Of a stretch of DNA of 64,000 nt, positions 2,992-64,000 are shown one piece after another. Each line of letters begins with the position of its first letter. The first letter of the stretch is position 1. The stretch comes from Psammoneis japonica (Eukaryota): positions 62,001-126,000 of the forward strand of contig QPGO01000047.1 of assembly GCA_008632985.1 (NCBI GenBank). Direction: 5' to 3'. A model generated the notes under the pieces. It searched no databases and was not told the origin of the DNA. It saw only the letters and a program-made list of their open reading frames with translations. The translations under genes were made by a program, and so were the position numbers.

Positions 2992-5900
2992 TCACTCGGC
3001 TGCTGCTTCATGTTGGCTGCAGCACTTTTTCCCCGCCCGAGGCACTTTCTTGCAGCGAGCCCCGTTCTTTGTGGTCCCAGCGCAAGTTTCCTTCTTCGTC
3101 ATGATGGACGTGGGAGTGGGATTGTCGGAAGTCTTCTGATTGGAAGCTGGAGGAGCCACGGCTAGATCCTTCTGGGTTGAAGAAGCTCCACCGACCACCT
3201 TTGCCGACAGAGTGGGGGGCATTGGAGTTACATCGTCGGTTGCCTCGACATCCACATCAACAGCCGTCTTGCGACCCCATGATGAACCCATGAGTCGGTT
3301 CTTCCACGAACCACCACCGAGCTTTTTGGCGGATGGAGCAGGAGATGCAAGGGGCTCGGGACGCGACGAGTCCGACGGAGCATGGACTTCTTCTGCTAAA
3401 CGAAAGAGGGTCATTGGATGTGACAACATCAAAGAAGAGGATGCATGCTGGCGAGGCTTGCGCACCTTGTCATTGCCAGCAGCCTCCTTCTTGGTCGGCA
3501 CGTCACATGGCGTCACAGGATCCTCCGACAAAGCGTCGAACCAAACAGGAGTGGGTGACTGGCGTGTCCCATTGTTGCTTCCAGCAGGAGCATCCGCCTT
3601 GATTGATGCCGCGGCATCCTTTGAAATGGGCGTGTCGCGCGCCGTGGGACAATCCTTTGGCCCACTGGTGCCTTTTGCACCATGCTCATTTCGGTTGAAG
3701 AGTTCGTCCAAGACCTTTGGGTTGAGTTCAAAAAATTAAAAAGGGCAAGTGGATTTGGCAAACAATGCAAGCGCAAGCAGGACAATGTACAGCCATGCAG
3801 CAGCTTTTGCACCTCAACCCCGGGGGCGTCCTTGGCATCATCCTTGGGCTTCCCAATGGTGGCAATGTTTGCAACCCCACGTGCATTCCAGTTTGCCTTG
3901 GACGAGTCGTCCGAGACCCACAAAGACAGCATGATCAAAGCGGTGAATGGCTCAGATTGCAGCGTGAGACAATTCAGAAACCAGAGCCAAAATCAGCATG
4001 ACAAAAGCAGTTTGCATGCCTCAGCGACCATCGGCGGCGTGCCGTCCTTGGCGTCAACCTTGGGCCCACCAATGCCGGCAACGTTTGCAACCCCACATGC
4101 ATTCCGGTTTTCCTTGGATGAGTTTTCCGAGACCTTCTATAAAGATGGCACAAAGAGGTGAACAGTTCAGGTTCCAGCATGACAACACACAAACCAGAGC
4201 CAACATCATTGCGAGAAAGTGCTTTGCATGCCTTGTCGACGACCGGCGGCGAGTCGTTGGCGGCGTCATCCTTGGGCTTGCCAATGCCAGCACCGTTTGC
4301 AACCCCGCGCACATTCCGGTTTGCCTTGGACGAGTTTTCCGAGACCTTCTATAAAGACAGCACAATCAAAGTGGTGAATGGTTCAGGTTCCAGAACAACA
4401 ACACACAAGCCAGAGTCAAAATCAGAACGACAAAAGCACTTTGCACACCCAAGTGACGATCGGCGGTGCGCCGTGCGAGGCATCATCCTTGGGCCCACCA
4501 ACACCGGTGCCTCTTGCAACCCCATGCGCCTTCTGGTTTGGGCTGAAGTCAGAAAACATCTCCCATGCAAATGGAGAGAAGGACAAAAGGAAAAAGAGGT
4601 GAACAGATCTGACAACAAGAGGCGATGTCATGCAAGAATGGATCTGATGATGCATTGCGCGAGACAGAGTAAAAAGACGAAACACCACTGCATGCACACC
4701 TTGACAGAAGAGTCATCGGTTTGGTTGATCCGGAACAAAACCCAGTGCGCTTTCCGGCTCGACTTGGACGAGTTGTCTGAGACCCACAGACAACATGACC
4801 AAAGCAGTGAACAGTTCAGACCACAGCATGATGACACACAAGCCAGAGCCAAAACAGTGCGATGTGAGTGGTTTACATGCCTCAGCGACGATCGGCGGTG
4901 TGCCGTGCGAGGCGTCATCCTTGGCTCTGCCAGCACCGGTGCCTCTTGCAACCTGTGAAGACAGCACAACCAAAGCGGTGAATGGTTCTGAATGCAGCAC
5001 AACAACAAAAAAGCAAGATCCAAAATCATTGCAAGAAAAGCACTTTTGCATGCCTCAGCAACGATCGGCGGCGAGTCACAGGCGGCGTCATCCTTGGGCC
5101 TGCCGGCACCGGTGCCTCTTGCACCATGCTCCATCTGATTTGGGTTGGAGTCATCAAGCACACCTCAGCAACGATCGGCGGCGAGTCGCAGGCGACGTCA
5201 TCCTTGGGCCTGCCGGTGCCGGTTGCAGCATGCATGCAGACAAAAGGTCATTTTTGTCACGCCCTTTGTGACATTTAAAGGCTGCAACACGTCGCCGTGA
5301 CACATTGACTCTTGTCAGCAGCTGTGTGTTGCACGGTGCCTCTCGCACCATGCTCCGTCTGATTTGGGTTGGAGTCATCAAACATCTCCCACACCGATAG
5401 AGAGAAGGAAAAAAGGTAAAAAGAGGCCAGTGGATCTGACAACAAGATGCGACATTGTGCGAGAATGGATCTGACGATGCAATGCGCGAGACAAAGCAAA
5501 AACAGGAAACACCAATGCATGCTGCGCACCTCAACAGAAGAGTCTTCGGTCTGCTTGTCTCGGAACAAAACTTTGCTTGAAGAAAAAGCCTTGGGAGTGT
5601 TGAAAGCAGAGGCGCGACTGCAAGGCCTGTGGGTCGATTTGCGCACAGACGCGTTGACGCAGTTTTCGATCTCCTCCGCGGTGAGCTGACCTGTTTTGAG
5701 TTTTTCAGTGTTTTCCAGGGTCACCTTGACCACATCCTTGAGAGTGGGCGACGTGGAACCACCATTTTCCACCAATGTGTTGGTGATGTGCTGATTCCTG
5801 TTGTCACGATTGTGCTGATTCTGAACAAAATTGATGTCGACAGCACCAGGTTTGATTGCATCGTGCCGGTGGCAGGTCGGACAGCCAATTCCGTGCCAGG

Positions 5901-6143
5901 ATTCAGAAGACGAGGTCGCGGCCCGTTTTGACCTTCGGTGAACAGTTCACACCATTTCTGGCAAAACATCCGCCGAGTGTTGCTGTCATTGAGCAAGTCG
6001 AGGTGCGGATAAACTTGCTTCAACTCGGCATCAAAACGATCGATCGCACATGCTCCGGCGAGCTTCTTGATCTCCGGATCCATTTCGGCTCTTTCAATCA
6101 TGGGCTTGAAGAAGGCATCGTAGGCGCTGAAGATAGGAGCCAT
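2992..6143 (-). pseudogene. Disrupted hypothetical gene with a C-terminal CxxxTxxGxRC...CxxH putative zinc-binding motif, interrupted by an internal repeat array
   Basis: ORFs 5721-6218, 5275-5775 and 2992-3711 read as pieces of one protein (ATG 6143, frameshift near 5850). The C-terminus is CAGTTKNGARCKKVPRAGKKCCSQH, where this motif normally has YCxxH. The EHGA(K/R)GT motif occurs in both the last piece and the repeats. Confidence 0.5.
3790..5570. repeat. Degenerate tandem array of ~210-215 bp units plus a duplicated ~200 bp block (about 4540-4740 and 5360-5570)
   Basis: gcaacccc..gcattcc.gttt.ccttgga.gag recurs at 3871, 4087 and 4299. The gatcggcggcg...catccttggg motif recurs to about 5210. 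Confidence 0.85.
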
Positions 6144-15880: not shown

Positions 15881-16141
15881 GAAAAAATCAGAGGAGGTCG
15901 AAAGAAATCGAAATGGATAGAAAGGACCGCGCGTCCGCGCGACAGTCCAGCCGGTTGTCATGTCCGACGCGCCAATTTTGGCCACTGGGCTTCACTTCCA
16001 AAAATACGTATGTAGAATTATACGTCGAATACCGTACAGTGGCAACAGTCGCCTTCGCGTGATCCGCGCACGCGCTCAGATTTTTGTCGCCGCCGTTCCG
16101 CATTGCAAACTTCTGCCTCCAGATTCCAGATGCATGCCACC

Positions 16142-19100
16142 ATGGCAGATGCTTTGCCCGGTGCGTTTGTGATTACCGTGCCCCCAGGCCCTCTGGGGGT
16201 GCATGTTGCATGCTCCAACAACACTTGTGTGGCAATGAAACGTGTGGATGCCAAAACCGCGCTCCGTCCGGGTGATGTTCTGGTCGCTCTGAATGGCGTG
16301 CCTCTCCCCAAAACAAACAACATGGCAGAAATCATGCCGCTCTTTCAAGCTTGTGCCGACAAGTCGAGGCAAATAACCGTGCGAATGGGTCCTGCACAAC
16401 CCCAGCAAGCCATGGCACCGACTGTGCTGCCGGCTGCAGCTCCTTCTGTCGCTGCTCCAGTCGTCAGCATGCCGCTTCAACCTAAAAGCTCAAACCCCCC
16501 GGCATTAACAAAAGTCACCAAGCTTCCAAGCAAGAAGCCTCCTAAGGACGCTTCCAAGAAGAAAAAGACGAAAAAGAAAAAGAAGAAAAAGAAAGAGTCG
16601 TTAGACGATCCGTTTGCTGATTTGGAAGAGATTCCTCTTCCCGGTTTCATCTCCAAGAACAAGGCCTACTATTCAACACTCAATAGCGAGAGCTTGGGAG
16701 CCATCGCCGATAAGCTCGGCTGCGACCATTGGAAAGAGCTCGCCACGATGAAATCCAACGTTGACCGCTACGGTAAACTGAGTGCCGGTGTGCAATTTAA
16801 GCCCGGTACGCTTTTGCGTATCCCAACAAACGTTAGTGCGTGGAAAATCAAGAAACTCTTCAACCACGAACAAGAAGCCGAGCAGCAGCCCGTGACGTGT
16901 TTAGTGTGCCACAAGAAGGAAGACGAAAACAATCCCAACGAGATTATCCTTTTATGCGACGGTTGCGACGCGGCGTGTCACGTGGCTTGCGCTCAGCTCA
17001 AAGCTGTTCCCGAGACGGATTGGTTCTGTGAAGACTGTCTGCACGTGTTGAGAGCTCGCAAGAAGGCTTACGGCAGTAACGGTGCTAGCTTCCGAGCCGA
17101 GCCACCCGCCTTACCTCCTCTGATACTATCCGACGCTCTCGTGGTTCTCCGAACCAGTGTCGACGCCAAGCTTCAAGTCCATCTCCAGGAAAAGCGTACC
17201 GAGTTGTTGGACGCGATGACGGAAAACAACAAAGTAGTGGCTTGTCACTTGGATCAGCGATTGAACGAGCTCCAGCAGCAGGAGCCTAATCTAAGGGAAG
17301 AAATGGAAAACTGCCGAAGCGCTATTCAGAGGGAACTCTTGAGCGCTGCTCGGAGGAATGGAGTTGCCGGTTTTGGAGGCATTGGACGTTCAAACGCATG
17401 GATCGAAGTGCTGGGCGTCAATGGCCGTCCCAACCTGCGTCTGTCGGCACGACAAGAGACCAGAGAACCAACCTATTGGCCCCGATTCAGAGCGGGTTAC
17501 GAGTCTCAGCGCTGGAGAGATGCGGTCCGGATGCGAAACAATGCAAGGCGATCTGCGCCTGTCACGAGGGCCATTGAACATTGCAATCGGAAAAATAGTG
17601 AGCTCGAAGAGTGCAAAAACAGTATTGCTCAAGTAAAGCAAGAGATCAAGTCTCAATCCCATGTCAATGAAGAGGATCGACGAATTCTTCTTATTGAGTT
17701 TGCGTCCATGTTGGGCGAACCGCAGCTCGAGTTTGAAACCAAGGGCAAATTCGCCAAGCGCGAGGCACGCCCCAAGTTGCTTGGATTCGTCAAGCTTGTG
17801 GATGAAGGTCAAGTTCAAGCCATTCAGATGCTACAGGAGCCGGATCAGTTGGTCATTCTGATTCCCCTTCATGACGGTATGGAGACAGATGTCACTGTCC
17901 TTAATGGAGAGTTTGCGATTTTTGGACGCGGCACACTCTTTGATAGCACTCGCGACGACAGCACCCCGATCGATTTCAATGGCATTCGGGGAGCCCAACG
18001 TGTACTCATGCAGCTCCTTCAAGCCGACGAACGAAATGCTGCTTCCTTTAGGACGAGTCCGGTCGTTCCTTCTAGCGTGACGCTTCGCGGAACAGAGAGC
18101 GACATCTCTGCAGCGGCAAAGTGCTTCGATCTTAGCGAGCTTGTACGAGATTGTAACTGCGATTTGGACATGCCCATGGCTCCTACCCCGCCAACAATGG
18201 TGGCCAAGGGTTTGGAACTCCGTGAATACCAGAGGTCATCGCTGCAGTGGATGATTGATAAGGAGAAAGAACCAGATGGGCTGGGACTTGCCGGCGAGCT
18301 ATGGTCTCGGGTTCAGTTCTTGGACGGCGACGGTTGCTACTACTATTGCGACCTTACGGGTACATTCTCAAGAGATATTTTTGATTTCCGCACGGATGCA
18401 GAGCAAAGGGATGCGGCTAGGAATTTTGGTGGACTACCGAGCGGTGGCATTCTTGGTGAAGAGTAAGTTTATACCAGTTTTATAGATCTATTCTGTCGTC
18501 CGTGGGTTTTCTTATCTCGCATGTCTGGCTGACCCTTTCTGGCATTGATTACCACACAGGATGGGGCTTGGAAAGTCTGTCATCAGTTTGGCTCTAGTGG
18601 TTTCAAACCCTCCTCCTCCGGCGAATCGCGTCCTCCCACGTGAGCACCTGTGGAAAAGTGTGGACCATCCCGAATACGTTCCACCTCCGAGCGTTGTGGG
18701 AGCCGCATCCGGCGGGTCCAAGAATGTGTTCTTGTCAAATTCCTCTCTTATCATTGTTCCAATGACGCTAGCGTCTCAATGGCAAAGCGAGGTTGAACGG
18801 TTCGCTCCCTGGCTAAGCCTCATGACACTCCATTCCGGCGAAAATCCAACCATTCAAAAGATTGCTACTACTAATGTCGTCATCGTGTCAACCTTTGTGC
18901 TGCAGAATCAGCATTGCTCTCAGCTATTGAACAAGCTTCGACGAATCCATTGGCACCGCATCTTTGTCGACGAATCTCACTACAACCAGACCGGAGAAAA
19001 GACGAAGTTGTCCTTGGCTTCTCTTTCGGCGACCTATCGTTACTGGTAAGTGAAACCGTGACACTGTACTATTTGATAAATCTGCTTCTTCCTTTCCTCA

Positions 19101-23617: not shown

Positions 23618-26274
23618 ATGGTCATCAACAACAAGGCTCTGCGCCTGGTGGGTTTAGCCACCTGTGCGTGCCTGGCAACTGGGCAGCTCGTCATCAATGA
23701 GATCATGCGCAACCCTTCCAAAGTGAAGGACAGAAAGGGTGAATGGATTGAGCTCTTCAATGCAGGTGCTGCAGAAGTCAATGTCAACGGTTGGACCATT
23801 GAAGATGATGGTGCCAACAAAGTGGTGATTGACAACAATGGTCCCCTGACGATTGCACCCAGCAACTTCTTGGTGCTTGGAAACAACGGCGATGCCGCAA
23901 CGAATGGCGGAGTGAAGATTGACTGCGAGTGTGATGGCACCCGTCTGCAGCTGAGCAACAATGAAGATGAACTTGTCCTTTTAGATGCTTTGCAAGTTGA
24001 GGTTGACTGGGCAAACTTGGATGCAGGGGCCGATGCCACGTTCCCAAACCCTGTCGGTGCGTCTCTTTCTCTGTTTTCCCCCGGCAAAGATGACAACGTT
24101 GGCAGCAACTGGTGCAAAGCCACAACACCTTGTGGCTCTGGCAACAAAAGGACCCCGGGAGCTGCAAATGACTGCAAGCATCTGATTGTTGACGAAATCA
24201 TGAGGAACCCTTCGAAGGTCCAGGACAGCCTCGGGGAGTGGTTCGAAATTTTCAATCCCACCAAGACGACCATCGACATCAACGGTTGGACGATCAAAGA
24301 TGATGGCAGCAACCACCATGTCATCATTGACAATGGTTCTCCACTGAACATGTCTCCTGGTGGCTGCCTTGTTCTCACAGACAACAGTGACCCGGGGACA
24401 AATGGTGGTGTGAAACCGGGCTGAGTTCATTCTGCCGATGATTTGGTCTTGAGCAACAGTCCGGACGAATTTGTCCCAGTGGACAACCTCGGCCTTGAAA
24501 TCAACAGGGTGAATTGGGACAGCAGAGCAGGATCAACCTTTCCAAACCCCAATGGCGCCTCTCACAGCTTGCGCGCCCCCACTTTGGACAACAACGTTGG
24601 GAGCAACTGGTGCGCGGCAGTCGCCGTGTTCGGTGACGGCGACAATGGCACACCGGGAGCTCCTGATGATTGTCCAAAAGCAAACAGACTCATGATCAAT
24701 GAGATCATGCTGAACCAGTCAAAGGTCAAGGATGGCAAAGGAGAATGGCTTGAACTCTACAATCCTGCCCTCAATGAGGTGGACATCAATGGATGGACCA
24801 TCAAGGACAATGAGTTCAACAGCCACGTCATCGAGAATGGCAAGCCTCTTCTTTTGTCACCCCTGGCAGATTCCTGGTGCTTGGAAACAACGGCAACATC
24901 ACTGACAATGGCATTGTTGCATTAGATTGCAACTGTCGCAGTCGTTTGCAGCTGAACAATGGCGGCAACAAGCTTGTTCTCGCAGACAGTCAAGACGTTG
25001 AGGTTGATCATGTGGCTTGGCATGCAGGGTCTGATGACTTTCCATGCCAGAATGGCGCAGCCATGACACTCCGTGATCTGACTCTGGACAACAGCATTGG
25101 CACAAACTGGTGCAGTGCAAACTCCGCTTGTGGCAACAATGGCAACAAAGGAACACCTGGAATGACAAACGTGTGTCCGAATCCCATCATGGGCTAAGAT
25201 GGATCGGTCTCTTTGCAGATTGTGATCAATGAGATCATGTGCAATCCCACTCAAGTTTCAGACAAGTTGGGAGAATGGGTGGAGCTCTTTAATCCCACTG
25301 ACACCAAAGTTGACATCAACGGATGGACTCTCAAGGATGACAGTTTCAACAGCCACAAGATCGACAATGGTGCCCCCCTTGAAATCTTTCCGGGTGGATG
25401 CCTCTTGCTTGGAAACAATGTTGATCCTTTGACAAACAGAGGAGTGACTCTCGACTGTGACTTTCGTGGTGAGTTTTGTCTCAATGACAAGGAGGATGAG
25501 ATTGCTCTCCTGGCCGGGTCCATTGAGATCAACCGTGTGAACTGGAAAACTCATGGGGACAACATTTTTACTGAGGACAAACTCCCCTTTCAATCTGGAG
25601 CATCCTGGGCTCTTCACCACCCGGGCCTTGACAACAATGTGGGAAGCAACTGGTGTGCAGCATCGACCATCTACAGTGATGGTGATTTGGGCACTCCAGG
25701 TGCAAAGAATGACTGCAAGCATGAGGACGGGCCTGCAATCAATGAGATCATGTGGAACCCAGCCGCAACCAGTGACAGGGATGGCGAATGGTTTGAACTG
25801 TTCAACCCAACCAAGACCAAGTTTAACATCAATGGTTGGACAACAAAGGATGATGGCTTCAATCGCCATGTCATTGACAACAGCACCCCCCTCCTTCTTG
25901 TGCCAGGCAGCTGCCTCATTCTTGGAACCAACAAAGACACTGCTGCCAATGGGGGCGTTGCTTTGGATTGTGAGCATGGGAACAAAATCCAGCTCAACAA
26001 TCATTCCAATGAGCTGGTTCTCTTGGATGGTGATGAAGTCAAGGTGGATGGGGTCAACTGGGATGAAGGACTAAACTCCAGCTTTGCCGACCCAACCGGT
26101 GTGTTGCGGGCTTTGCGTGATCCCTTCTTGGACAATGACAATGGAAAGACCTGGTGTGTGGCAACCACTCCATGTGGTGATGGTGATTTGGGCACTCCAG
26201 GAGCCAAGAATGACTGCCCTCCCGGTCACCGAATGGAACAGAAGAAGAGGGGTGGCATCAGAGGATCTCAGTGA
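23618..26274 (+). pseudogene. Secreted protein with five tandem lamin-tail-domain (LTD) repeats, frameshifted
   Basis: Signal peptide, then five repeats of INEIMxNP..GEWxELFN..INGWTIKD..NWC..GTPGAxND. Frame breaks near 24420, 24855 and 25195. Confidence 0.9.
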
Positions 26275-33102: not shown

Positions 33103-33178
33103 TAAGAGCAGTTCTTGAATACTGTACGAATATGCACTGTATGCTTTCTGCGTTCCATAATAAGATCCGAATGAACCA

Positions 33179-33790
33179 GCAAATGTTGCACGTTGGACCC
33201 CTCAAGGATACAAGTTTTGATTTGAAAACCATTAAGTTCAGAAAGCCTTCTTCAGCCTCTCAAAGGAATATGTTGAACGTCTTCATCACAAAAGCGAACT
33301 TCATTCTGGCACTTTTGGAGAAGGCAAAGATATCGGCAAATTCTGTAGGGCCCGCCTTGATTGGAGCATCTTAATGCGCCGGAACGGTTCATTCAAACTT
33401 CCACTGTGTCACCTTATCCGCCCATATTCTTTCAACGTGTCACCTGAGTATCAACGAGTAGGAGTATGATAATGATAATCTGCAAAGTTCGCTCTGCCTG
33501 TTCACTCTTCCACGAGAATGGGAGCTACCCGCCCCATCAGTATCAGCAAAGATTTCACTCCAAGGCCAGCTTTGGCAGCTCCAGGAAAGAAGAAATTGAA
33601 CAAGAGCACAACTTTACGTCACCCCTTTTATCGATACTGGTGTGTGCCCTCTACAAGTTGTGTGGGTGCGTCACGGGCATGAAACAACAAAGCTCTCGTG
33701 TCTCTTCTGTCAAGATTGCTAGTGGCTCATTGTTTACGGCAATCACATTGTCGCAAATCATGGGCAGTGGTCTCCACTCATTCTGACTTG
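33179..33790 (-). pseudogene. 3' fragment of a DUF4336 gene, paralogue of 51988-52665
   Basis: Clear nucleotide similarity to 51990-52660 (aaatgttgcacgttggacccctcaagg...), with internal deletions and an in-frame stop. Confidence 0.9.
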
Positions 33791-42557: not shown

Positions 42558-43484
42558 ATGATGTCCTCTGTCCTCTTTATGAATGCCGTGATCAACGTCA
42601 GCCACTGTGACTTGACCACAGCTGTGATTCAACGCAAGAGCACGAGCGATTGGCTTCGTTTTGCTCTTTGGGTCGGCCATTGCGCCTTGCTACAAGATCT
42701 CGATGTTGTTTCCATCACAATGTTCTCGACGTTTATCTATGGATTGTGCCAGGGGTTGTTGGGGCTCACGGAGGACTTTTTGCATGTCAAGCAGCAGTGG
42801 TTTCCGAACGTCACTGTCAAATCGATTTGCTCCTCCATCATCGGGTCTCCCATCTGGAGCCAACTCCATTTCGTTGCCATCAAGTGCAAATCAATCTTAT
42901 TGAAGTGTGTGGGACTCGTCATTGGCATGTCCAAGGAATGCATCAAGCGTGTTGACTTTGCGAGCGCAGCAGCCGTCTTGAAGCGCTTCGATTTGACTGC
43001 TGCGGTTGTCGTGTTTCACATCGGCATGGCTTTCAAGAATTTTGACATCAGTGGCCTCATGGGATTTCTCCTCCGTCTCATGTTGGTGTTGGTGCTGGCC
43101 TGTCTCATTCGCATGCACGTTGCGGGATTGTTTTTACCATCAACCGAGGACGATCTGTCGAGCCATCGCGACGACCGTGTCAAGAAGCCTTGGAAGGAGC
43201 CAACGTCCAAATTCAAGAAGGGACAGTGCGTGCATTGTCGCCATTCAAACAAGACGTGCAGGGCAAAGATTTTAAGGGTCCATTTTGATGATGATCTTGA
43301 CCCGTTCTACGATGTGAAATTGGGCGACGGATGCGAGAAGCAGATGACCGAGGACCACCTTTCGGACCAGCTCGGCTCAGGTCACATTCAGGTTTTTATT
43401 GACATCTTTGACGACGATCCGGATTGCAACATGTTGCAAGGTGCTCAATGGGGGGAAGGGGATGTCGTCAGTGCAATCTTGTGA
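42558..43484 (+). pseudogene. Hypothetical membrane protein with a small C-terminal SH3/Tudor-like motif, TpA-eroded
   Basis: Open 308-aa frame containing FKKGQCVHCRHSNKTCRAKILRVHFDDDLDPFYDVKLGDGCEKQ, with Cys/His where aromatic residues would be expected. Confidence 0.5.
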
Positions 43485-45574
43485 CGATTGTTCCATCAAG
43501 ATGTTCGATGGGGGAGGATTGCCGAGTGTCATGTGTGGATGCGGTGTGACGAGTTTGCGTGTTGAATTCTTTGTTCAACTTGGGCTCTCTTTTTTCCGAA
43601 AAAAAGGCCTTTGCTGTTGAGATCAGAGGGCAACCATCTTTGTGTTGTTGAATGAGAGTTTGGTTGATTGCGTTGGGTCTTGAATTCAAGCTCGTGTTGG
43701 ACACACATTTAATTTGAGCTGATTCCGAAGCATGTCATTGTTTCCGAACAGAGCATGTGAACGAGAGAATGAGAGATTCACGCGGCACTCAAACCCAAAT
43801 TCATGCCGGTGTGAAGGTGGTGCCATCTTTTTCGAAAGCAGAGGGGCGGCTGTTAAAAAATCGAGAAAGGAAAGTTGAAGTCGAGGAAACTGTTCAACAC
43901 GAGAAACTCTTGCTCCCTCTGCAGGAGACGCTTTGCCATTCTAATTCAGTTGGGCAATCTATTTTGGTTTCATTCAATCAAGATGAGCAGAGTCTTGTAC
44001 AAAACAAACATCAAACAAACACAAAATTTTGGCCAACACTTCTCCGTGTCGTCGCAAACTAGTTTTAATTGCACTTTTCGTCGTTCGTGGCACAGCTTGC
44101 ATTCGCAATCAATCGATCGAAGGCTGAGGACGTCACGCCGGCGGACCAGCATGGCACCCTTTTTAGACTGCAACAGTTGCGGACTTGCCTGTTGTTCAAC
44201 ACTGATTGACAGCAGCCACTCTCCACTGCTAGTTGTCAAGAACAAAGACCAACCAAACTGTTCAGTGGCTCTTGCTGCAGTCAGGCTAAGTAGATCCATT
44301 CCACCCAGATGTCCCCTCAGATCGAAACCACAAGAGAGCAAAAGCCTCAACACTTAAAACATTTCGTGTGGAAGCTGGAAAGAGCAAACTTGTTGTGAAA
44401 CTCGAGGCATCAAGAAGGACATTTTCAATGCACTTTGCACAAGAATCGCCTTTGAAGCGAGAATTGCAGCAGTTTCTGGTTGATCCATTACCCAGCGAGC
44501 AAGGTCGTGGGTCTTTTCTATCACTGTTTGGGCCTGCTTTATGTTTTCTCCTTTGCCGCGGTAGGCCAACAGGGCAAAGATCCTTGAAAAGATGTCGCCA
44601 AGCATGCATCCTCCGCCTTCTGTTCTGATGCATCTTGGAATGAGTGTGCACGGCGGATGGACATGTTTTTTTCTGCATCGAGCATGTCCGCCATGAAGAG
44701 ACGTCTCTTTCCAAAGCACATTGGAGGGCCTTGCCCACTGATGCAGAAACGTGCGAATGCCAAGAGGGCAAAGGGCTCTCCCAAGCAACAATGGCCGTGC
44801 TGGCCTTCCAATCAAAAAAGAAATCATCTCCTTCCTCTACGTTGTCGTCATGCTTCATGGCAAGTGCAAAGGCCAAGCGAATCAGATTTGAGTCTCGTCG
44901 CTGAGCCACCGTGTTGAACCGCAGTTTACCACACCAACTGTCCATCAACAATTTAAAGTTAGAAACATCGAAAGACATCAGAACTCTTTCTCGCGTTCCC
45001 ACACCAAAGGCGCTTCGGGTCCCGCCAACTTGAGCGCTTCCTCCCTTCCACAGTCAACTTCTCCTTCAATCTCCTCCACACCTTTCCCAGATGCAATGAG
45101 TCGCCCGATTTCCCCCTTGACATTGTCCACTGCGACTTTCGCACTTCCCTGACACGATCAAGGCGAGCTAGAAGTGGAGCGAAAACGTCCACTTTCCCTG
45201 CAGCAGCTGGCTCCTCGGTGTTGGGTTGAAGAGCAAGCCCAGTTGGCCAAAGGGAGGAGCCCTGATCTGCTTCTGTTGCAAATGATCGACATTCGCTACA
45301 AAATGCTCCCATGGTTGAAAACGCAGCAACAACATCGACCTGACCACACTCAATGACGGCAAACATCTTGTCGCGGATCCAACCGATCAGCGCGGTTTCC
45401 ATGATTTTATTGGCATTGCGAAGATGCCACTTGCCAAAGCAGTTTGCAGGATCCACCGAAAACAACAATGGCGGAGCATCCCGAGACGACGGATGTGTCG
45501 AGCAATTTAAAAAAAAAAAACGCTTCTTTCCGGAAATGGCTTCAAAGGCCTCCACATCAATTTCCTCCGCACTG

Positions 45575-46065
45575 CATCTGAGCATTCACCCAAGATCCAG
45601 AGACAAACGTGTGTTATGTTGCCAGAAGAACTGTCTTTGATGAAACCCAACAAATTGGGCGAGATGGATCCTTGCAGTGCAGGGTGCTGTTCGACAATGG
45701 CTCTGACAAAAAGAGCAACCTGCACAGAACCATCCGCGGCCAAAAAGTCCATGAGAGCAAAAACAACCGACTCGGCAAAATTGGGAAATCGCACAGCGCA
45801 TCTGTGAACGGCCCAAATCAGAATGTTCCGGTGGGCCATGCCCTTGGCTTCCACCATGGTAGAGTCCTGCTCTTGAGCAGTCTCGGCAACCTCGCGATTG
45901 AGCGTCGAAACCAAAATCAGCAACGTCCATGGCAACATCGAGAACCTTCTCGCAAAAATCAGCGCTGCAGGAACTGAGCGTGTGAAGAATGCCCATTGGC
46001 AGCTGCAAGATCTTGTAATGACGAGTCTTGAGGTCTTCCAACCGTTCACGAACAATGAGCTTGAC
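45575..46065 (-). pseudogene. COPB1: Internal fragment of coatomer beta subunit (beta-COP)
   Basis: VKLIVRERLEDLKTRH..ILHTLSS..KVLDVAMD and AHRNILIWAVHRCAVRFPNFAESVVFALMDFL..FVRAIVEQHPAL..LWILGECS match beta-COP (YR..LI.A.H.CA..FP, E.YP.L, LWILGEYS). Confidence 0.85.
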
Positions 46066-46857
46066 AAGTTTGTGTGGGTGGAATGGCAATGGGTGCCGAA
46101 AAAAGCGACACTGGAACACAAGCTGCCTCGCACCGGTGGGACACGGCAGCAGACGTGCTGGAAAGCATTGGAAACAAGATCTGGACAAAATCGTGACTTT
46201 TGGGTAGGATCACGACGACACAGCTTGGACCTTGACGAGAGGCCTCCACTGGACATTGTCCGCAAATCCATTGAGTTGGCAGACAAAATTGAGTTCTGAA
46301 CTTGGCAAACAACTCGACTTGATTTTGCATCATTCACTTGGTAGTGTTGCGTGTTGTTGTTGTTGCAGACATGGTACTTTCTTGCTTTGCTTGTAATGCC
46401 AATAAACTTGAAGAAGAACGCTCGTTGCTTGCGACGTGTGGGTGTTCCTTGGATGGATGCGGCGTCATGTTTGGCGCCAAGGTTTGTTGGAGATGTGATG
46501 CTGTTGTGGTGGCGGCGCTGCTACAGTATACTTCATCCAGCTTGTGGCCCGTCACGGACGGTGTAGTGGCTGCAGACCCCAAAAGGCAAGCGAAGTCACG
46601 GTCGGGCTGTCATCATGGCGAGAAGAAAATCAATCGCGCTGCATTCGGTCTCAATTGTCATCATGGCGAGAAGCAAATCAACTTTGTTGAAATGTACCAA
46701 TACAGATTCTTATATCTATATTGAAATTCCAAAATCACGTAGAATTGTACTGAAAAAAGTGCTGCCGACGGACGAAGGCAGGACACGAGTGCTCTCGCCA
46801 CTCGCACTCGCGCTCTTACCGATAGAGCGCGAGTGGGCGAGAGACTCAGAAAGCGGA

Positions 46858-51098: not shown

Positions 51099-51987
51099 TT
51101 GGAAATCGAGATAGTTTTACTTCTGAAAATGTATTCAACGAAATGACAGCGGATACTTTTGACGCTAACCCACTATGGGGGCTATCCTCAAGGACGCAGA
51201 CCAATTCTTTGCTCATAGGGAACGAGGATCATCAGCGCCTATCCCGAACTCGGAGGACCATTAGAACCACTCAGCCAAGCACAACTTGTATCTTATGCTA
51301 ACACACTAATCGTCAAGGAGGGTCAGGGAATTTCAGTGACATTTGGTGATCTTGGATGTAACAACGATTAAACGGTGTGCCTATGAAAACAGCCACGAAT
51401 ACAAGAACCATTCTACCGAGGATATGAAACGAAGAGGGAGTGTGAGCGTATGTGCTCATCGCCAGAGTTAGGTTGTCGCGGGTATCGGCGAGAACGTGCT
51501 TGAAAGGAACGAGAAATGAGCAGCTATTGTCGTTGACAGAGAGATCATAGCTGGACAAAGTCGCGAATGAATTGCTACCGCCGCCATTGCTGTTGCTCAG
51601 ACTGAATTATCACGCAATGTTTTAGAAAGAGAATGAACTTATTGATGCGCCCGGGCTCTTGTGATACTCAGGGAGGTGTCGTGATCGATCATTGTTGCTT
51701 GTCAACCTACTATGATCGACTTGAAGCGGACGGGAGAAAAATGCAAGGAAGGGTGACGATTTCTGGGACAATCGATCCGAGGCCATCGTTTGAGTGCATT
51801 TCATCAGAGCATACCTTGTTCTAAGTAGATACCGTGAACGTAGTAGCTTGAGAAGCGCCTTGGCACCAGTAGGGCAGTAATTGCTCCTTATAAAAAAACG
51901 GATAGCAAGTTATAGTGCTCAACACGACGGCAGCAGTATTAGCGACTAGTGAGAGCAGTTCTTGGATACTGTGCGACGAATGAAACA

Positions 51988-53480
51988 TCAAATGTTGCAC
52001 GTTGGACCCCTCAAGGTGCCAAGATTTGATTTGAAAACCGAGAAGTTCAAAAAGCCTTCTTCAGCCTTTCGAAGGAATAGAACGTCTTCGTCACAAAAGC
52101 GAACTTCATTCTGGCCCTTTTGGAGAAAGGCAAAGATATCGACAAATTCTGAAGGGCCCGCCTTGATTGGAGCATCTAAATGTGCCGGAACGATTCTTTC
52201 AAACTTCCACTGTGACACCCTATCCACCCATTCTTTCAACGTGTCGCCTGAGTTTCCACGACTATGATAATTTGTATAATTGGAAAAACAGCCGGTTTCC
52301 CGTTGCCCTTGTAAACATCGAATGCCTTTCGCTCTGCCTCTTCACTCTTCCATGAGAAGGGCAACCATCCGCCCCATCCGTACTTGTAGGGTCGCAAATT
52401 CAGCAAAGGTTTCACTCCAAGGTCAGCCACGGCAGCTCCAGGAAAAAAAAATTAAACAAGAGCACAATTCTACGCCACCCCTTTTGTCGATTCTCGGGTG
52501 TGTCCTCTACAAGTTGTGTGGGTGCGTCGCGGGCATGAAACAGCAAAGCTCTCGTGTACTCTGGTTCTTCTGTCAGGATTGCTGGTGGCTCATCGTTTAC
52601 GGCAATCACAGTGTCACAAATTATGAGAGTGCCAGACGCCTTGTGCCATACTGCCACGTCTTGAAACTCTGAAGCCGGACCGGGCTTTACATCAAGGACT
52701 TCGTGCTCGAGTTCTGAATTCCATAGTTGAGTACCTTTGCTCGATGACGGCAATGTCTTTGTCCATGAAGGTAGACCAAGAAACTGATCAGGAAGATTTA
52801 CAGGAAAGGCATATTGCTTGTCTGTAACATAAAAGTCTGCGGACGGAAAGGCTCGTGCAAAAGGTCCGGCATTCACCTTGTGCTCCACAGCTACTGAAGG
52901 AAGCAAAATTGTACGTACAGGTCCGTATTCGTCAATCAGTGGCTGTAGGAGCTGCAAGCATTCTTTTGTGGGAGCAACGGGTGCATACACAAAGAGACCG
53001 TTCGACAAGGCTGCTACCGTCATGCGGATAGGAACATGAACATAGTATATTCCAATCAATTGATCAAACGTCCAGACACCCTCCGCCACTTTTTTACGAA
53101 TGGTCTTGCGACGGGAATAAGGCGCCACAGGCAACGCAGTCCAAAGTGGCCATTCGGATTCTTTCGTAATTTCGGCTCGGGCTTGTTGCGAGGAAGAGGC
53201 AAGCGTTGCTGCTGTCAAGGCAGGGGCTTGTAGTACCCGAGATAGAACGGATCGTCTGTCTTCTGCGAAACAGCCTGTGGAGCAATCATCCTCGTCTTTA
53301 CCCGACTCGACAGCTGAAACGAATAAGTAGTACCGGTATTGATCGGAGCGCAGTAACATGTCTTCAGACTGACAGGGACTAGTGATGAGACTTTTCCCAA
53401 CGTAACCAGCAGCGAAAGCACAACATACTGCAAATACGTTGCTCGCCTCCAAAAAACATGAAACCAGAACGTTGCACCAT
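51988..53480 (-). CDS. DUF4336 family protein (probably plastid-targeted) with at least two 1-nt frameshifts
   Basis: WPLW..LP.APY..RKTI, VPIRMT, YAPVAPT.EC, VEHK and W.FERIVPAHL.API are DUF4336 motifs. Frame breaks at the A run 52443-52451 and near 52263. Confidence 0.85.
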
Positions 53481-56540: not shown

Positions 56541-57801
56541 ATGATGGACTCCTCTGACGATTTTTTCTCGCAGCAAACCTCTTCTGCGTCGTCTTCGTCC
56601 CTGCGAACACGTCGTGCACCACCACCACCTCCGCCGCGAAATAATGGTGCCAGTCGAGGTCCTCCTCCGCCTCCTCCCAAAGCGAGTCTCTCGTTGGGAA
56701 CGGCAGCAGGTGGAGCAAGTACGTCTGCGTCGTCGTATTATGGAAACAACAACGTAACCAATACCACTGCAAGGCCTCCAGCTCCGTCGTTTTATGGGTC
56801 TTCCAGCAATACTACCAATCAGAATGCGACAGCGACGGCTCAGAGTTCCTATTATGGAACAAGTACTCCAGCTCCCGCACCGGCTGTACCGGTAGCTTCT
56901 GCACCCGCAGCTCCCGATGCTTCTGATTGGTATCAACCGAGTGTAGCTCCGGCACCGGCTCCCATGCAACAATTCCATCCACAGGAGCATCATCAACAAC
57001 AACAGCCAAACGTGATGAATCCAGTACGATTCTTCAGCTGTTGCAGGTCAACCATCTTTAGAAGGAGCCATGGATAGCGGTGCCCCCGCCATGCCGGCCC
57101 CTCAAAGAAACGCTCCCCGTCGCACGTCATCCTTTGGTTTGTCCAGCATATTTGGAGCCTCCTCGGAAAGGAGCAACAGTGATATTCCTCCCGCAGCACC
57201 CACAAGCTCTGGTTCTGCCTATTTGAGTCAACCGTACGATCCCATGGAGTTTGCAGACGATCCACCCCTCCTCGAAGAACTCGGCATTGACACGGAAAAC
57301 ATTTGGTTCAAAACCAAGGCCGTCTTGTTTCCCTTGATCAAATTCAAAACCACTTCTTCCAAATACGCGTCGGTCCAACAAGTGGTGCAAGATGTCGATT
57401 TGGCGGGACCCCTCGCCTTTGCTTTGGCGCTCGGTGGAGAGTTGCTCTTGAGTGGCAAGGTGCACTTTTCGTACATTTATGGATTTGGACTCTTTGGCTG
57501 TTTGAGCATGACGCTTGTCTTGAATCTCATGAGTCCCGTCGATGCTATTTCCGTGTGGACCGTCACGTCTATTTTGGGTTATGCGCTCTTGCCTGTCAAT
57601 ATACTGGCGCTGGTCAAGTTGCTCTTGTTGGGGTATTTGGAAAGTTTGGGACGGGTCTTTGCCGTCTTGACCATTGCGTGGTGTACCGTGGCATCAACGC
57701 GCTTATTGGAACAAGGGTGTGGCATGCGGGATCAACGCTATCTAGTGGCGTATCCGATTGCGCTCTTGTACAGTGCCTTTGTCATGATTACAATCTTTTA
57801 A
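56541..57801 (+). CDS. YIP1: YIP1 family ER-Golgi membrane protein (YIPF5/Yip1p-like) with a frameshift near 57021
   Basis: DPPLLEELGID, DLAGPL, LLSGKVHFSYIYG, SILGYALLP and LVAYPIALLY..F. The Pro/Ser-rich N-terminal part is in a different frame. Confidence 0.9.
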
Positions 57802-58169
57802 AGAATGAAAGGTGTGATGTTGAAGATTATGGTTGTATTACACAAGTCAAGTAAATATCTCTAGTAAGTAGGAGGTTTGGTATTGCGTGGTACCGGTAGC
57901 TCTAGTAGATGAGTAGGTCTCTAGAAGTGTCCTATGGGTGATTCGTTAGCATAAGTTATTGTGTCGCATTGACTGCTCTCGATTTAGGATGCTGAGTACG
58001 AGAATTACGGGTTGCAATAATGAGCTGCACGGAGAATGCAATGGCTATCACAGTGTAGAAGTGGGCGACTACTGCTAGTTGTTGCCTGCGCTCTCTACAG
58101 ACAAACAACATGAATCTTGCGTTTGTTTAAAACATCGCAAACTGTCATAAACTGTGAAGAACACACGAC

Positions 58170-58610
58170 ATTTTGAGCATTCTCGTCAATGCAAAAACCG
58201 TGGCCTGTCATCTCAGAACAGCTCTTGCAAACAGAAAAAGGTTCCAATCAAAACCACAATGATTCCAACAATCAAAAAGTACCTTGCCAACTATAAAGTC
58301 CCTTGAGTTTGAGACAAAAGAGACACCAGCAAGATGAGGGCAATCACAGAGCCCATGCAACAGCCCACCAAATCCAAAACCACGCCCAAGGGCAGATCAT
58401 TGATGGCTAAAAAGGCTGCAACAACCCATGCCAAGAGAGTTGTCAGCATGATGTGAAAGAAAAAAACACTGACTGACATCCACCAACCACCAGGCATCTG
58501 CTGGAAGCAGCAACTTTGACCACACACCACTTGCCACAACTGTGCTGCTTTTCATGGTGGACAGACAAAAGACAGCGATAATTTCTGACTCATGACTTAA
58601 AGAAATGGCA
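58170..58610 (-). pseudogene. Hypermutated duplicate of the 3' end of the amino-acid transporter gene at 63100-63525
   Basis: Colinear nucleotide match, and LGVVLDLVGCCMG occurs in both copies. Confidence 0.92.
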
Positions 58611-61600
58611 CATGACCCTGAGCCACAGTGCTGGTGAAACAGAGCAGATCACCCACCACAACATCACCCAGACAAAGAGCAAAATGTCTTTTGCGTTCCA
58701 TGATTTTTTGCTCTTCTGACGGGGTTCAATGCCTTCCTTGTTGACCAGGGACAGAGGCACATTGCAGGCTGTGTCCTGAGAAAAAGACCATGACTCCTTT
58801 TCATCTTTTGTGACTCCAAGGATGTGATGACCTCCTCTCATTTTTTTGTCCTGTCAAGCCTTCCTCTCCAACCTTGCCTTTTTCCATTGGGCTGAGGTGG
58901 TTGCTCTAAAAACACACCCGCTGTTGCAAGGCATGCACAGATGCCCATCACACATGACACTCTTTCTTGCCACTGCCGGCACAGCGCCAAAGGCAGCAAG
59001 AAAGATTTGACAGCTTTGAGAAACCTCTGTGTGCTGTGTGAGACCCACCACATCCTGCAGCGGTCTTGGCACTGCTCCAAAAAAATGACCAAGCCTGCGT
59101 GTTTGTGTGCAAAGGCAGAGGATCCTTTCAAGCTTGACCCTCTTGCCTTTGTGAGCAATGAAGAGTGCATGGCAGAGCAGGTGGACCAGCCACTTTGCTG
59201 AAATGTCCTGTCAGGTGCTTTCACAATGACGATGCAGGGCACAAGCGGTGTGCCCAACAACCCAACAATCAATGTCAAATTTGTGGCAGGTCAAAGACAA
59301 CATGTTCTCATGGCAAAAGCTTTGTGTGGCAGCTGACCCCTTTTTGTCCAGGCCAGCTTTTGCACCCACTTTTGCATCATTTCCTTCAAGGACTTGCTCC
59401 TGGAGCTGATGGCAGGCATTTTGTGGGCTGCATCATTTGTTGGGAAATGAAGTCCAAAGACCCTGGCCATTCCAAATTTGATGCTTTTGAGCACAGCTCC
59501 TGTGCTGAAACAACCCGCCGAAGAACATCCTTTGTCAATGCCAAAGACAGCTGGGGGGGGGCTTCCCCTCACACATCCCATCAAGGAAGAATGCCCAGCT
59601 GCTGCCTTCCCAGAGAAATGCACTTTTCTGCCTTGGTTTCACGACCGCACCCTCTGCATGTTTTTCCATGTGAGCTCTTGTGCAGATGTCACCTTTCTCC
59701 AATGGTGTGACAACGGCTCTCCTCACATGCCTGTTCTGACCACTTTTTTGCTTCATTGATGTGCCTTCATTTGTTTCATCATCATGAGCAATTCATGCAT
59801 TGGAGTTTGGCCAGCATTGAGCCCTTTTGGTTTGTTTGCTTGTCATTCTTCTCGGCATTTTTCTTTCTCACATGCAAATTTTCCACACAAATGCGAAAGT
59901 CATTTCAGATGGTCAACTTGCTGGACTGTTGGCTTCTCTCTGTCCTCACCTCTCAGGCGTCAACACATCCCCCCTCCACTCATTGTCAATTTAAGTTCCC
60001 TGCTTTTTGTGGCAAGCAATGTTCCACTCTGTTGCAGCTCTCAGAAGCTTCAATTTGAGGCCAACTCAGCATGCTGCACCAGCCTTTTTCCCATGTGCCA
60101 ACAACTCTGCACAAGTTTGAGCACATGCTCTGCACGTCTGAAAAGTCATTTTGGATGAACAACCCACCAAGCTGTTGACTGTGCTGCTCTTTGTCCATGC
60201 CTCTTGGCAGGTGTGAACAACTTCCCTTGCATCTGCTGTTGGCTTGAGCCATCTGCATCATGTGGCAAACAACCCCCCATCATTGCTGATCCCAGAAGTT
60301 TGAGTTTGGGGCCAGCTCAATGTGGGTCAGTGTTTGCTCCATGCCCTGCTCTTTCTCACATCAAAGCTTTTCCAGCAGGCGGCCCACTTTGCCTTTGCAG
60401 CTGGGTGCAGCCCCAAGAAGAAAACCCAGTTACAGCATGAGGGCATTGAGCTCTTTGACTTTGATGTCTTGTTCCAATGGTCCTGTTTTTGCTGCTGCCA
60501 GCTGTCTCCGTTGGGCACCACAGACTCACGGCATCAATCTTGGCCAATTGTTGCACACTCCTGCTGCGCAGTGTGCTGGGGGTGTGGGTTGGCTTGTGCT
60601 GCTGGCCGGAGTTGCAGGGTGGAAAAGCGCAACAGTGAGCCACTTGGCACCACACTGGCAGCAATCTGCATGCAGCTGAAATGTGCAATGTCCAAGGTTG
60701 GCCGCTCTTGTGCAGTGCCACACCGCGAAATCTGTGGCCGTCGTGGCTGGCACCCCACCCCCGCGCACAATGTCATGCCACAAAAGTTGTGGAAACTCAG
60801 GACCCTGTATCTTGACCTTTTTTCCCACCTCTGAAGGCACACTCTCAGAGCAAGACAGAAAGGATCAAAACAGCCAAAGTGGCTTGGAGCACACAATTGC
60901 TTCAGTTGCAGTCCAGCTGCAGATTTGCGAGCTTTTTTTTAATGAGTGACGCTCACTTTCAAGGAAGAAGCGAGTGCCGCAGATCTTTTCACCGTGCCTT
61001 CATTTTTTCTTTCACCCAAATCGTCAGACAACACAACCCGACACTTTGTCCATTTCACCAGTTGAGCGCGTTTGGTGCAAACAAAGTAGACTGCTCAGTC
61101 AGTGCAATGCCACAACGGGCGGGTGTGGATTTGCTGTGGATTTGCGATTTCATTGTCATGCACGTCTTGTGACTTCTTGCTTCAAGTTGCAGCAGAAGTC
61201 ATGTGGCATTCGCGCGGAAGGGGGGGCTGCCATCACGCTTCTGTTCTGGTGTGGGTTGATGATTTGGAGTGCATGATGAGAAAAGCAGCAGGCACAAGCA
61301 TGGACAATGGCTTGAGACAATGGCTCCTCATTTTTCGATGGACGCTCACTGCGTTGGTTTGACTGTGTGTCTGAGTGCATCAGCAGTTCTTTCATTGACT
61401 GGTGGTGCATGCATTGTTTGCAGGATTGTGAAAGGGAAGAAGATTGACAAGCTGCACCACGCTTGATGCTGGAAATCTCGATCTCAGACATCGTCTTCAC
61501 TCTGGCCGCATTTCTGAGTCCACACATGATGCCGTCAGCGACAGGCATCGTCACCTCCAGGGGAAGCAATGCGTCAGGCTCGGCATCTGCGACGTTTCTT

Positions 61601-61650
61601 GTTGCTGGAAATCTTGCCGTTAGCTCCCACTGCTGTCAGCTCAGTTGCTG
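58170..61650. other. TpA- and CpG-depleted domain G, fading into the 7TM gene
   Basis: Very few TA between 58620 and 61650; TA is abundant from about 61830. Confidence 0.85.
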
Positions 61651-62723
61651 TTATCGTCTCATGACAAGACATGGGTACAGTGAGGAGACCTTGGCACGAC
61701 GCTTTGAAAAACCAGCTCATTTGGTGACATTTCTCATCATCATTCTCTTTGCATCTGTCTGTCTGGCCTTGGAGGGGTTTAACCCAAATTGGGGGACGTC
61801 TTCGGAAGTGAGACTGTCGAAGAAAGTTACGTAGAATTTGTACTAAAACAGTCTGTCAATCAGTGCGATTGGGTATTTGGGACCTCTGGACAGATCCTAC
61901 GTGTTTTCTTGTGCGTACAAATTGTACTGGGAAAACCCCCAAACGCACTGGCGATCAGACCGCCTTCGACGATCTCACTTCCAAAGACGCCCCCCAAAAT
62001 CAGCTGATAAATGCTTGTTTTATTGAGTCCTTTCCGCCCGAATGCTATGACACGGACGGTGTTGAATGCACTCGTGGCTTGTACGCAACTGAGCTTGCCT
62101 ATTGCTTATTTGCACTTGTGCTGGCATGTTTGCTTGTCGCACTTGTCAATACCTTTCTCGTATATTGGACGGTAAGACAGCTGACAAGGAAGTGCGACCG
62201 ACGTGCTTCAAGAAGGAATTCCCATGTTGGTGATCAAATGTTCCGTCGCGAGAGACGTGTCGGCGTTCAAGCATGCCTATATATGCTAGCTTACTTGAGT
62301 ACCTCCTTATGGATTTTAAGTTCTTCTCTTGTTTATGAGCTTGCTGTCAATTCAGGAGCAAAGCCGGGAAACGGGCTCTATGCTTACCAGTGCCTCTGGG
62401 TTTTCTTTGTGGCGCTTCAAGGCTTCCTCAACTTCTTTGTTTATATTCGACCCCGCTATCTTCAATGGAATGAAAGCCATTCAGAAAAGTCGCGACTTCG
62501 GGCTTTGCGAAAAGCAATGTTTGACGTAAACCCACCCCCAACCGCTATTTCTAGCCGCCGAACTAGTTCTCCCCCGTTGCACACCAGTCGAGCTTCGTCG
62601 TCATCTGGAATGAAGCGCGGCACTTCTTCATTCAAGAAGGGACAAAGTAGACCTCTTTCATTAAAGATGGAACCAACTGTAACAACGAATGCGCCTATTG
62701 AGAAGAAACAAGAGGAATGTTGA
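61300..62723 (+). pseudogene. GPCR-like 7TM protein (Git3/cAMP-receptor-like type expanded in diatoms) with a degraded 5' half
   Basis: SAVLSL.G..IV, ISISDIV, E..A..FE...H, VGVQACLYMLAY and LQGFLNFFVYIRPRY. Several frame breaks between 61360 and 61870. Confidence 0.75.
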
Positions 62724-63137
62724 GGGCCAGTGCATCCATCTATCAATTGGCATGACGAACAGCTTGTTCGACTCCATGCTTATAGTTGGTAATGTTCAGC
62801 TCGTCTATTTCAATTTCTGCGATTGCGAGAAAGAAAGATGCACGGACGAGCGATGGACTGAAAAAAGGAAACAAAGAAGTACGAAAGAGCAATCGAGTGC
62901 TGAGTACAGAAGTATACTGGTTGCGCCAAGTGGCGTGAAGAATGCAATATAGTTATTACAGTGTAAATCAAAATGTAGGTGACAGTTGTTACCTACACCC
63001 TATAGAGACAAAAACCAAACTAATAATGCTAACGTTTCACAAAACAGAAAAAGTGCCATTAACCATGAAGAACATCAACCATGAAGTACGTACGGTATTG
63101 AGCGTTCTCGTCAATACAAAAATCGTAGCCTGTCATC

Positions 63138-64000
63138 TCAAAAGAGCTCTCGCAAGCTGAAAAAGGTCCCAACCAATCCCACAACGATTCCAATAATCAA
63201 AAAGGACCACGCCAACAACGAAAATCCCTTGAGCTTGAGACAAAAGAGACCCGGCAAGATAAAGGCAATCACGGTGCCCATGCAACAGCCCACCAAATCC
63301 AAAACGACGCCCAAGGACGGGGCCTTGATGGCCAAAAAGGTTGTAACGACCCACAAGAGAGTTGTGAGCATGACATGAAAGGAAAAAATGAGTTGATTGA
63401 CATCCACCAACCACCAAGTATCCGCCGGAAGCAGCAACTTTGATTCCACGTCACCCGTTACAATTGCAGTGCTTTTCGTGGTGGACAGAAAGACGACAAT
63501 CATTTCTCGACAGCTAAAGAATGGGAGAGGATACGTAAACATCATTACAAAACAAAGCAACAGCTTTGCCAAATCAATAGCTTTGGTTTGTGGGTATGCC
63601 TCAAACACGTCATCAGGTGTTTGATCCCAAAAGGTAATGTAAATAACAATACCAATGGTTAGCGAGAGAACGGCAGCCAACAGTATCGTCCACGTCGACA
63701 CGGCCTCCCAACTCTTGACGCTTCGAATGTCGGAGCGAAGAGAATTATACGTCAAGTGGACAGTATGCTGCGAGACAAAGTTAAACACAAAGGTCCCGAG
63801 ACTGTAATTGAAAACAGTTTGAGAGATTAGAATCAACAACGACAAGACTGCACGGCTTTCGGTATCAGAGCATGACTTACCTCTCGACAAACCCGGGCTT
63901 GACTTGTAGCCAATTCTCCGAGAAGGTACCGCCTTGAACTCGAACGTCGCCATTCGGATTGTCAATGTACATGAACAATGCAATCAGAATAATGCCTACG
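63138..64000 (-). CDS. Amino-acid transporter (Aa_trans/SLC38A11-like), 5' part outside the window; intron 63802-63880
   Basis: Spliced PGFVESLGTFVFNFVSQH, FTYPLPFFSCRE and LGVVLDLVGCCMGTVIAFILPG. Confidence 0.92.

Follow-up and report, generated by a model that had tools for sequence, protein, structure and literature searches.

Which part of a gene a regional mutator has reached, and why it stopped there, is the question raised by one end of a 64,000-nucleotide stretch of the Psammoneis japonica genome, referred to here as the window (contig QPGO01000047.1; G000:C49:62001-126000 of the 91.4-Mb assembly). The window consists of normal DNA alternating with kilobase blocks that are nearly without TA and rich in CA and TG, and the cores of the blocks are CG-poor. 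One block, domain G, ends inside a copy of a gene for a seven-helix protein resembling G-protein-coupled receptors (GPCRs) (Table 1). An earlier sequence-only reading proposed that the mutator spreads in cis past its target, as in the leakage of fungal repeat-induced point mutation (RIP), and erodes the receptor gene along a gradient. Our interpretation, to which we give a probability of roughly two in three, is that a chromatin-positioned TpA mutator, centred on a foreign segment of 2.6 kb, reached about 0.5 kb into the duplicated flanks on both sides of it.

A genome search identified an intact twin of the receptor gene 3.8 kb downstream, beyond the end of the window (G000:C49:127089-128282; 397 codons), with 87-88% DNA identity to the window copy. 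No TA is present in 61088-61620, compared with 32 in the 727 bases of 61997-62723. All 15 TA steps of the twin in 61299-61619 were lost from the window copy (6 to TG, 6 to CA, 3 by transversion), as were 3 of 7 in 61620-61785 and 7 of 32 in 61997-62860 (3 by transition). The first surviving TA is at 61621 and the last changed one at 61752. The loss 5' of 61620 clearly exceeds that in the 3' part (15/15 vs 7/32, Fisher p 2e-7), also when only transitions are counted (12/12 vs 3/28, p 8e-8). Other differences from the twin are flat over the same three intervals (8.3, 6.7, and 7.9%). The count of 32 bears out the TA-rich 3' half described earlier. Eight other TA, in 61828-61925, are not part of the gene and belong to an inserted element, a miniature inverted-repeat transposable element (MITE).

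The same boundary is seen in the protein. All seven tyrosines up to residue 111 were changed (six to Cys or His, one to Phe), compared with 2 of the 13 later ones; the first surviving Tyr codons, at 61652 and 61676, are where the sequence-only reading placed them. Tyr104 and Tyr111 are invariant in five of five aligned proteins (the twin and four database relatives) and are His and Cys in the window copy, which is therefore the derived one. The proposed origin of Cys and His from Tyr by TA to TG or CA change is supported by the Tyr kept in the twin and in distant relatives, but the twin itself carries several of the Cys and His as native residues, namely the C of AC, the second H of KLHH, the C of LSC, and the H of RHG. 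The peptides quoted as evidence are all present: ACIVCRIV (61407-61430), KLHH (61449-61460), and SHCCQLSCCYRLMTRHGYSEE (61625-61687). The first two, however, lie in different frames of the assembly, split by a 1-bp gap near 61460. The gap is absent from a short-read contig, which also carries the twin's letter at 61577, and the frameshift is probably an assembly error; it was dropped as pseudogene evidence since the missing base is present in that contig. The contig spans 57000-61814 unbroken, across the edge (same sample, possibly the source of the assembly), leaving the MITE as the only firm frame break and showing that the edge is no assembly join. The start codon is at 61320; the start at 61300 given earlier is in another frame.

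The change along the gene looks like a narrow edge, and a gradient running the length of the gene was rejected. For this locus alone, a step placed at 61650 (log-likelihood -15.7) and slopes 110-660 bp wide (-15.3 to -16.1) fit equally well and could not be told apart, and slopes of 1.3 kb and wider (-18.5 or worse) were rejected. Of 38 edges, 31 had segments long enough for a profile; across these, TA density was flat inside and flat outside, and simulation agreed with widths between 0 and 220 bp but not with 440 bp or wider. As a footprint, the edge is at most a few hundred bases, or one to two nucleosomes, wide. CG density inside edges, a proxy for the extent of silent chromatin marks, behaves differently and rises gradually: it goes from about 1.5 to 4.5 per 100 bases within the final 1.5 kb. 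Persistence of TA within blocks depends on context (as a fraction of outside density: TTAA 0.61, TTAG 0.28, ATAC 0.015), and the order of loss is TAT > TAC > TAG > TAA. A leak was not established at either of the two further edges suggested earlier, 5500-6143 and 16142-16480. A 140-codon minus-strand frame (5721-6143) starts at the first edge (6121) and runs into the block; it is single copy in the genome, so that no paralogue can serve as a ruler. At the second, seven TA steps (16005-16035) stand between the block and the next gene, which has a TA-poor, Ala/Pro/Lys-rich start, and no leak was shown.

The position of the edge can be measured against a tandem duplication, the unit of which comprises a minus-strand transporter gene (PF01490) and the receptor gene. 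All that is left of the first unit is the transporter 3' end plus the receptor, the latter preceded by some 160 bp of its upstream DNA (from 61157). Between them lies the foreign segment, which shows no resemblance that could be detected to the central part of the intact unit (63500-65080, window numbering) and contains no transporter-gene remnants. This structure shows the segment in place of most of the transporter gene of the first unit, presumably as the later arrival. Its outer two parts matched only themselves in the genome search, and its middle holds an old dispersed repeat, of which all 19 other copies read sit in TA-poor DNA. In the left remnant all 7 TA of 58190-58535 are gone and transitions have removed 15 of 19 CG; on the right, 11 of the 18 CG of the twin were kept in 61299-61619. 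TA loss in both duplicated flanks means that the erasure extends 0.4-0.5 kb into host-derived DNA on each side.

Table 1. Features at the edge of domain G (window numbering)
Feature	Position	Strand	Remarks
TA-erased block (domain G)	58295..61620		limits from two-state model
Decayed 3' end copy of amino-acid transporter gene	58146..58574	-	left flank of block; 81% identical to 63073-63498
Foreign 2.6-kb segment	58590..61155		block core; TA and CG both depleted
Old dispersed repeat	59620..60635		54 other matches, 65-79% identity
TA-erased host-derived stretch	61157..61619	+	first 100 codons plus the DNA before them; most CG kept
Broken copy of 397-aa GPCR-like seven-helix gene	61320..62723	+	codon alignment with twin
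Mixed edge zone	61620..61785	+	3/7 twin TA lost; two of four survivors in protected contexts (TTAG, TTAA)
MITE, 207 bp	61790..61996		terminal inverted repeats; 4-bp target duplication (61786-61789, 61997-62000)
Unaffected 3' part of gene copy	61997..62723	+	open frame; dN/dS 0.42-0.46 vs twin
Intact Aa_trans (PF01490) open frame	63138..63983	-	start of second, intact unit

The element in the receptor copy provides a second ruler. Judged by its sequence, it can be classed as a MITE, being short and non-coding, with inverted ends, a target duplication, and many copies; a solo long terminal repeat is a less likely alternative. The family comprises about 120 of 132 matches from the genome search, with a 4-bp duplication in most full-length copies and ends of the form TG..CA (loci L003-L030, L062-L101, L122-L140). 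The copy in the receptor gene is identical to three others, keeps 8/8 TA and 13/13 CG, and brings a stop at 61832-61834. As reporters we used 88 loci that ranked high or midway in the genome searches, a choice biased to unmutated copies; removal of four with short flanks or partial elements and seven with shared flanks left 77 copies, and the edges around them were called from the flanks alone. TA was lost by transition at 117/144 steps more than 200 bp inside blocks (18 copies with 4-8 hits each, none intact), 14/48 at 50-200 bp inside, 10/64 within 50 bp of an edge, 2/111 at 50-200 bp outside, and 7/246 further out, where 29 of 31 copies had no TA transition. Changed TA steps read CA (106) or TG (73) in 179 of 184 cases. 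Since an identical sequence is spared or erased according to where it landed, targeting follows position and not sequence family. Action in cis on a host gene duplicate is well supported as a footprint, the erasure having entered host-derived DNA for about 0.5 kb to the left and to the right of the foreign segment. A RIP-like homology trigger does not agree with the untouched twin and outside MITEs.

The rate of the process was estimated from eight inside copies with three or fewer other changes, counted before the shared-flank copies were removed. These had lost 43/64 TA, 21/104 CG, and 16/1318 other sites, which is an excess over other changes of at least about 46-fold for TA and about 9-fold for CG, or TA loss about five times faster than CpG decay. 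The process is recent, as young copies were mutated. MITEs were also found to be crowded at edges: 28 of the 59 copies not deep inside blocks were less than 200 bp from an edge, compared with 20 of 169 overlapping control points (p 5e-8). The crowding is most plainly explained by selection against insertions in genes; insertion targeting or a barrier may also be involved.

The order of events can be approached from the divergence of the pair. The ratio of replacement to silent substitution rates (dN/dS) was 0.25 (p 1e-4) in 5' codons not touching TA, which together with 0.42-0.46 in the 3' part indicates that the pair diverged largely under selection. TA steps with a choice of silent or replacing change were split evenly (4 silent, 4 replacing). 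From the dN/dS values, this split, and the kept CG we infer that the 5' TA steps were lost once the copy was redundant, with no sign of selection. CG was lost by transition at 15/18 sites in the left flank and 4/15 in the right (p 0.002; 5/15 and p 0.005 when site 61460 is read as in the short-read contig). Both flanks come from one duplication, and the contrast suggests that the left flank has long been in the block and the receptor 5' end was taken late. The MITE probably landed after the 5' erasure, just outside the edge. If all erasure had followed its arrival, the joint probability would be 0.004 or less at the 46-fold rate (12/12 sites changed, with 0/165 other changes in the MITE); such an order is unlikely at 46-fold and possible at higher rates.

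These observations are consistent with the following sequence. The [transporter gene, receptor gene] unit was duplicated in tandem, and a foreign 2.6-kb segment with the old repeat would have taken the place of most of the transporter gene of the first unit. Silent chromatin, with CG methylation like that of Phaeodactylum, may then have nucleated on this segment and recruited a mutator changing TpA to TpG or CpA on either strand, the reach of which would exceed or outrun CG decay and form a zone of about 0.5 kb past the segment on each side. The receptor copy, under purifying selection for much of its history, would later, being redundant, have ceased to resist and been stripped of its 5' TA steps, after which the MITE would have landed just outside the edge and broken the frame. 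The locus suggests that the process can reach host genes, the copy hit being a redundant duplicate. A further and more tentative proposal, with the odds against it, is that block edges advance slowly as fronts, with nothing but selection or transcription to restrain them. Redundant genes would be destroyed as a front advances, in a ratchet that turns duplicates into TA-free junk, would help to explain why about half of the genome is erased, and would leave a 200-bp fringe colonised by new MITEs.

Several observations weigh against this interpretation. The footprints were read from one genome and one sample, and a fixed 0.5-kb zone and a moving front leave an identical footprint. No candidate enzyme was singled out among 9 PF00383 and 4 PF02137 matches, which include no unusual deaminase, and the outer parts of the foreign segment have no recognised repeat. 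Six of the seven losses far outside blocks are in one MITE copy (L124, 6/8 TA changed). Conversely, four copies 51-144 bp inside an edge are intact, so that fossil edges and present activity do not coincide. In edge MITEs the 8 hits show a polarity that is suggestive at most (p 0.06), and MITE CG loss depends on both flank CG density and age (rho -0.59 and 0.74). The CG contrast between the two flanks could reflect methylation level or selection instead of time. Finally, at eight sites in the 3' part TA is present in the window copy and TG or CA in the twin; ordinary turnover of TA steps thus runs both ways.

The mutator might instead act on any untranscribed DNA. The receptor copy would have fallen silent first, its upstream region having been replaced, the edge would mark a transcription shield from neighbours or from the 3' part, and nothing would spread from the repeat. 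Likeness to the upstream DNA of the twin does stop about 160 bp before the start codon, several block edges are near intact genes, and about half of the sampled genome is erased, part of it with CG kept. We nevertheless regard this as unlikely, because the erased reach is similar on both sides of the foreign segment (about 0.4-0.5 kb) but the neighbouring genes end about 0.3-0.5 kb away from one edge and 1.5 kb from the other, and because MITEs outside blocks, which are presumably not genes, are intact. It is considerably less probable that the MITE came first, killed the gene, and then acted as a barrier halting a front. The last changed TA (61752) is only 38 bp before the MITE, copies crowd at edges as described above, and a copy that had lost 5/8 TA with 0/165 other changes (L013) shows that erasure can be very fast. 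The best step, however, is 140 bp before the MITE, copy-edge distances are spread over 0-220 bp with no pile-up at zero, one copy (L027) is erased throughout, and selection against insertions in genes accounts for the excess at edges; the joint probability given above also disfavours a barrier, with the reservation that the true rate may exceed 46-fold.

Pairing of the tandem duplicates as a RIP-like trigger is very improbable. Both erased flanks are indeed duplicated, 3.8-4.9 kb from their twins, but the twins keep TA, the equally duplicated 3' part was spared, and the far-outside copies of a highly repeated MITE are almost all free of TA transitions. Fungal RIP needs about 400 bp, and the 207-bp MITE is shorter, which limits the argument from the MITE. 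Least probable of all, and hardly credible, is an artefact or a repair event: an assembly chimera, which the sequence-only reading had named as fatal to its own proposal, or a wholly erased gene with its 3' part restored by gene conversion from the twin. Small assembly errors do occur here (2 letters and 3 gaps relative to the short-read contig over the 4.8 kb of 57000-61814). The edge is crossed by that one contig, with the caveat on its origin given above, and both halves of the gene are collinear with the twin and equally diverged, whereas conversion would lower the divergence of the 3' part; the gene is no chimera.

As to chemistry, adenine deamination by a TadA/ADAT-type enzyme recruited to heterochromatin would be the likeliest single candidate, at somewhat under even odds. 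TadA-derived editors prefer TA, and the context order TAT > TAC > TAG > TAA would for this reason suit a single-strand adenine deaminase. Modified thymine or an error-prone polymerase is a possible alternative. The deaminase set of the genome is ordinary-looking, with names assigned by reading of the sequences.

A related process in Bigelowiella natans is the subject of a preprint (Mettrop et al., bioRxiv 10.64898/2026.01.13.699255); our searches turned up no other account of TpA hypermutation. According to the preprint, integrated DNA of nucleocytoplasmic large DNA viruses (NCLDV) as well as of virophages in this chlorarachniophyte undergoes TpA hypermutation at a rate about 1000-fold raised, as measured in mutation-accumulation lines, in some lineages only; clusters of TpA-poor, CpA+TpG-rich windows are enriched in transposon-type domains, and an ADAT (ADAT2/3) is proposed. 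Both systems change TpA to TpG or CpA on both strands, are regionally confined, and run at a far higher rate than elsewhere (about 46-fold here, a lower bound from footprints alone, compared with about 1000-fold). They differ in that our system is in a diatom, takes up about half of the sampled DNA in kilobase blocks, and shows near-complete erasure with slower CpG loss in the cores. The target in Bigelowiella is viral or other foreign DNA. Here the block core is foreign to the duplicated unit and carries a dispersed repeat for which no family was found, the erased flanks are host-derived, a host gene duplicate was hit, and the edges were measured. The main text of the preprint treats neither edges, spreading, CpG, nor diatoms, and leaves open target choice and the cost to host genes. 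No report of TpA hypermutation in a diatom was found in the literature searched, a search with most subscription papers outside its scope.

RIP leakage in ascomycetes, in which a genome-defence mutator marks single-copy DNA beside repeats and can alter genes there (PMC9453070), is similar in that mutations extend into adjacent non-repeat DNA, here about 0.5 kb on each side. RIP makes C to T changes, which reduce GC, and homology sets it off before meiosis; in P. japonica T:A to C:G change at TpA leads. RIP also mutates both copies over their shared length, whereas our twin keeps TA, the 3' part is spared, and the fate of MITEs depends on position. In the diatom Phaeodactylum tricornutum, transposons carry CG methylation by DNMT5a, together with H3K9/H3K27 marks in transposon-rich regions (PMC9998398). 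Decay of methylated CG of this type would explain the CG-poor cores but leaves TpA loss unexplained, the latter being faster and reaching further. The present locus and the MITE family give the edge width, the targeting rule (position, not repeat identity), TpA loss ahead of CpG loss, and a host receptor duplicate in which conserved tyrosines are gone. Every Tyr codon contains TA, and no stop can arise from the change; genes hit in this way therefore keep an open frame and would be annotated as odd Cys/His-rich proteins. The interval 61620-61790 is a precise place where an edge can be examined.

The assignment of the gene was made on the twin. Seven long helices are present in its structural model (predicted confidence, pLDDT, 63.6), and every structure match listed for the model is a GPCR (best E 7e-5, template-modelling score about 0.5). 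No Pfam 7tm family matched at E 0.05; look-alike clusters at 0.96-0.97 are mostly from Bacillariophyta, with 7tm_1 or Dicty_CAR on 12-13% of members. The product is thus predicted to be a GPCR-like seven-helix receptor, and its G-protein coupling is putative. Eight more distant members of the family were identified (L034-L041, on G000:C143, C319, C87, C74, C117, C311, C9, and C119; 26-35% identity), and three of them are open frames of 435-454 codons with normal TA content.

Within the old repeat a stretch of about 200 bp is duplicated, the two spaced about 245 bp apart, in all copies compared. The repeat could not be named: 24 stop-read-through frames from four copies gave no Pfam match within the repeat. 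The lone match among them, DUF7869, falls outside it, in locus L046 (G000:C56:217129-221116), where a 315-codon open frame with this domain (E 6e-19) at the minus strand end adjoins the repeat in TA-poor, CG-normal DNA.

Erased DNA is common in this genome. At fixed positions in 19 ten-kilobase stretches, 47.6% of points were erased on both sides, and a two-state model assigned 56% of 281,781 bases to the erased state in a sample including the window and its neighbours. Some erased DNA in the sampled genome keeps CG. No alternative allele of the locus was seen in contigs, which drop rare variants (three runs listed, one sample). The differences between assembly and short-read contig, at 57023, 58294, 61460, and 61577, are probably long-read errors, and single-base frameshifts in this assembly are untrustworthy.

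Other blocks of the window vary in the extent of loss. The block at 42739-46342 shows partial TA loss (observed/expected 0.1-0.2) with CG near normal (0.75-0.9) and is perhaps recently captured DNA. A unit of about 500 bp is repeated five or six times with coding-like divergence at 23687-26217, inside a TA-erased block, possibly a host repeat-domain gene captured whole. The outer part of the first block holds an array of units of about 215 bp (3788-5522) that is TA-erased but CG-keeping. A second duplication in the window, 33168-33701 and 51977-52557, is 88-91% identical with a spacing of 18.8 kb.

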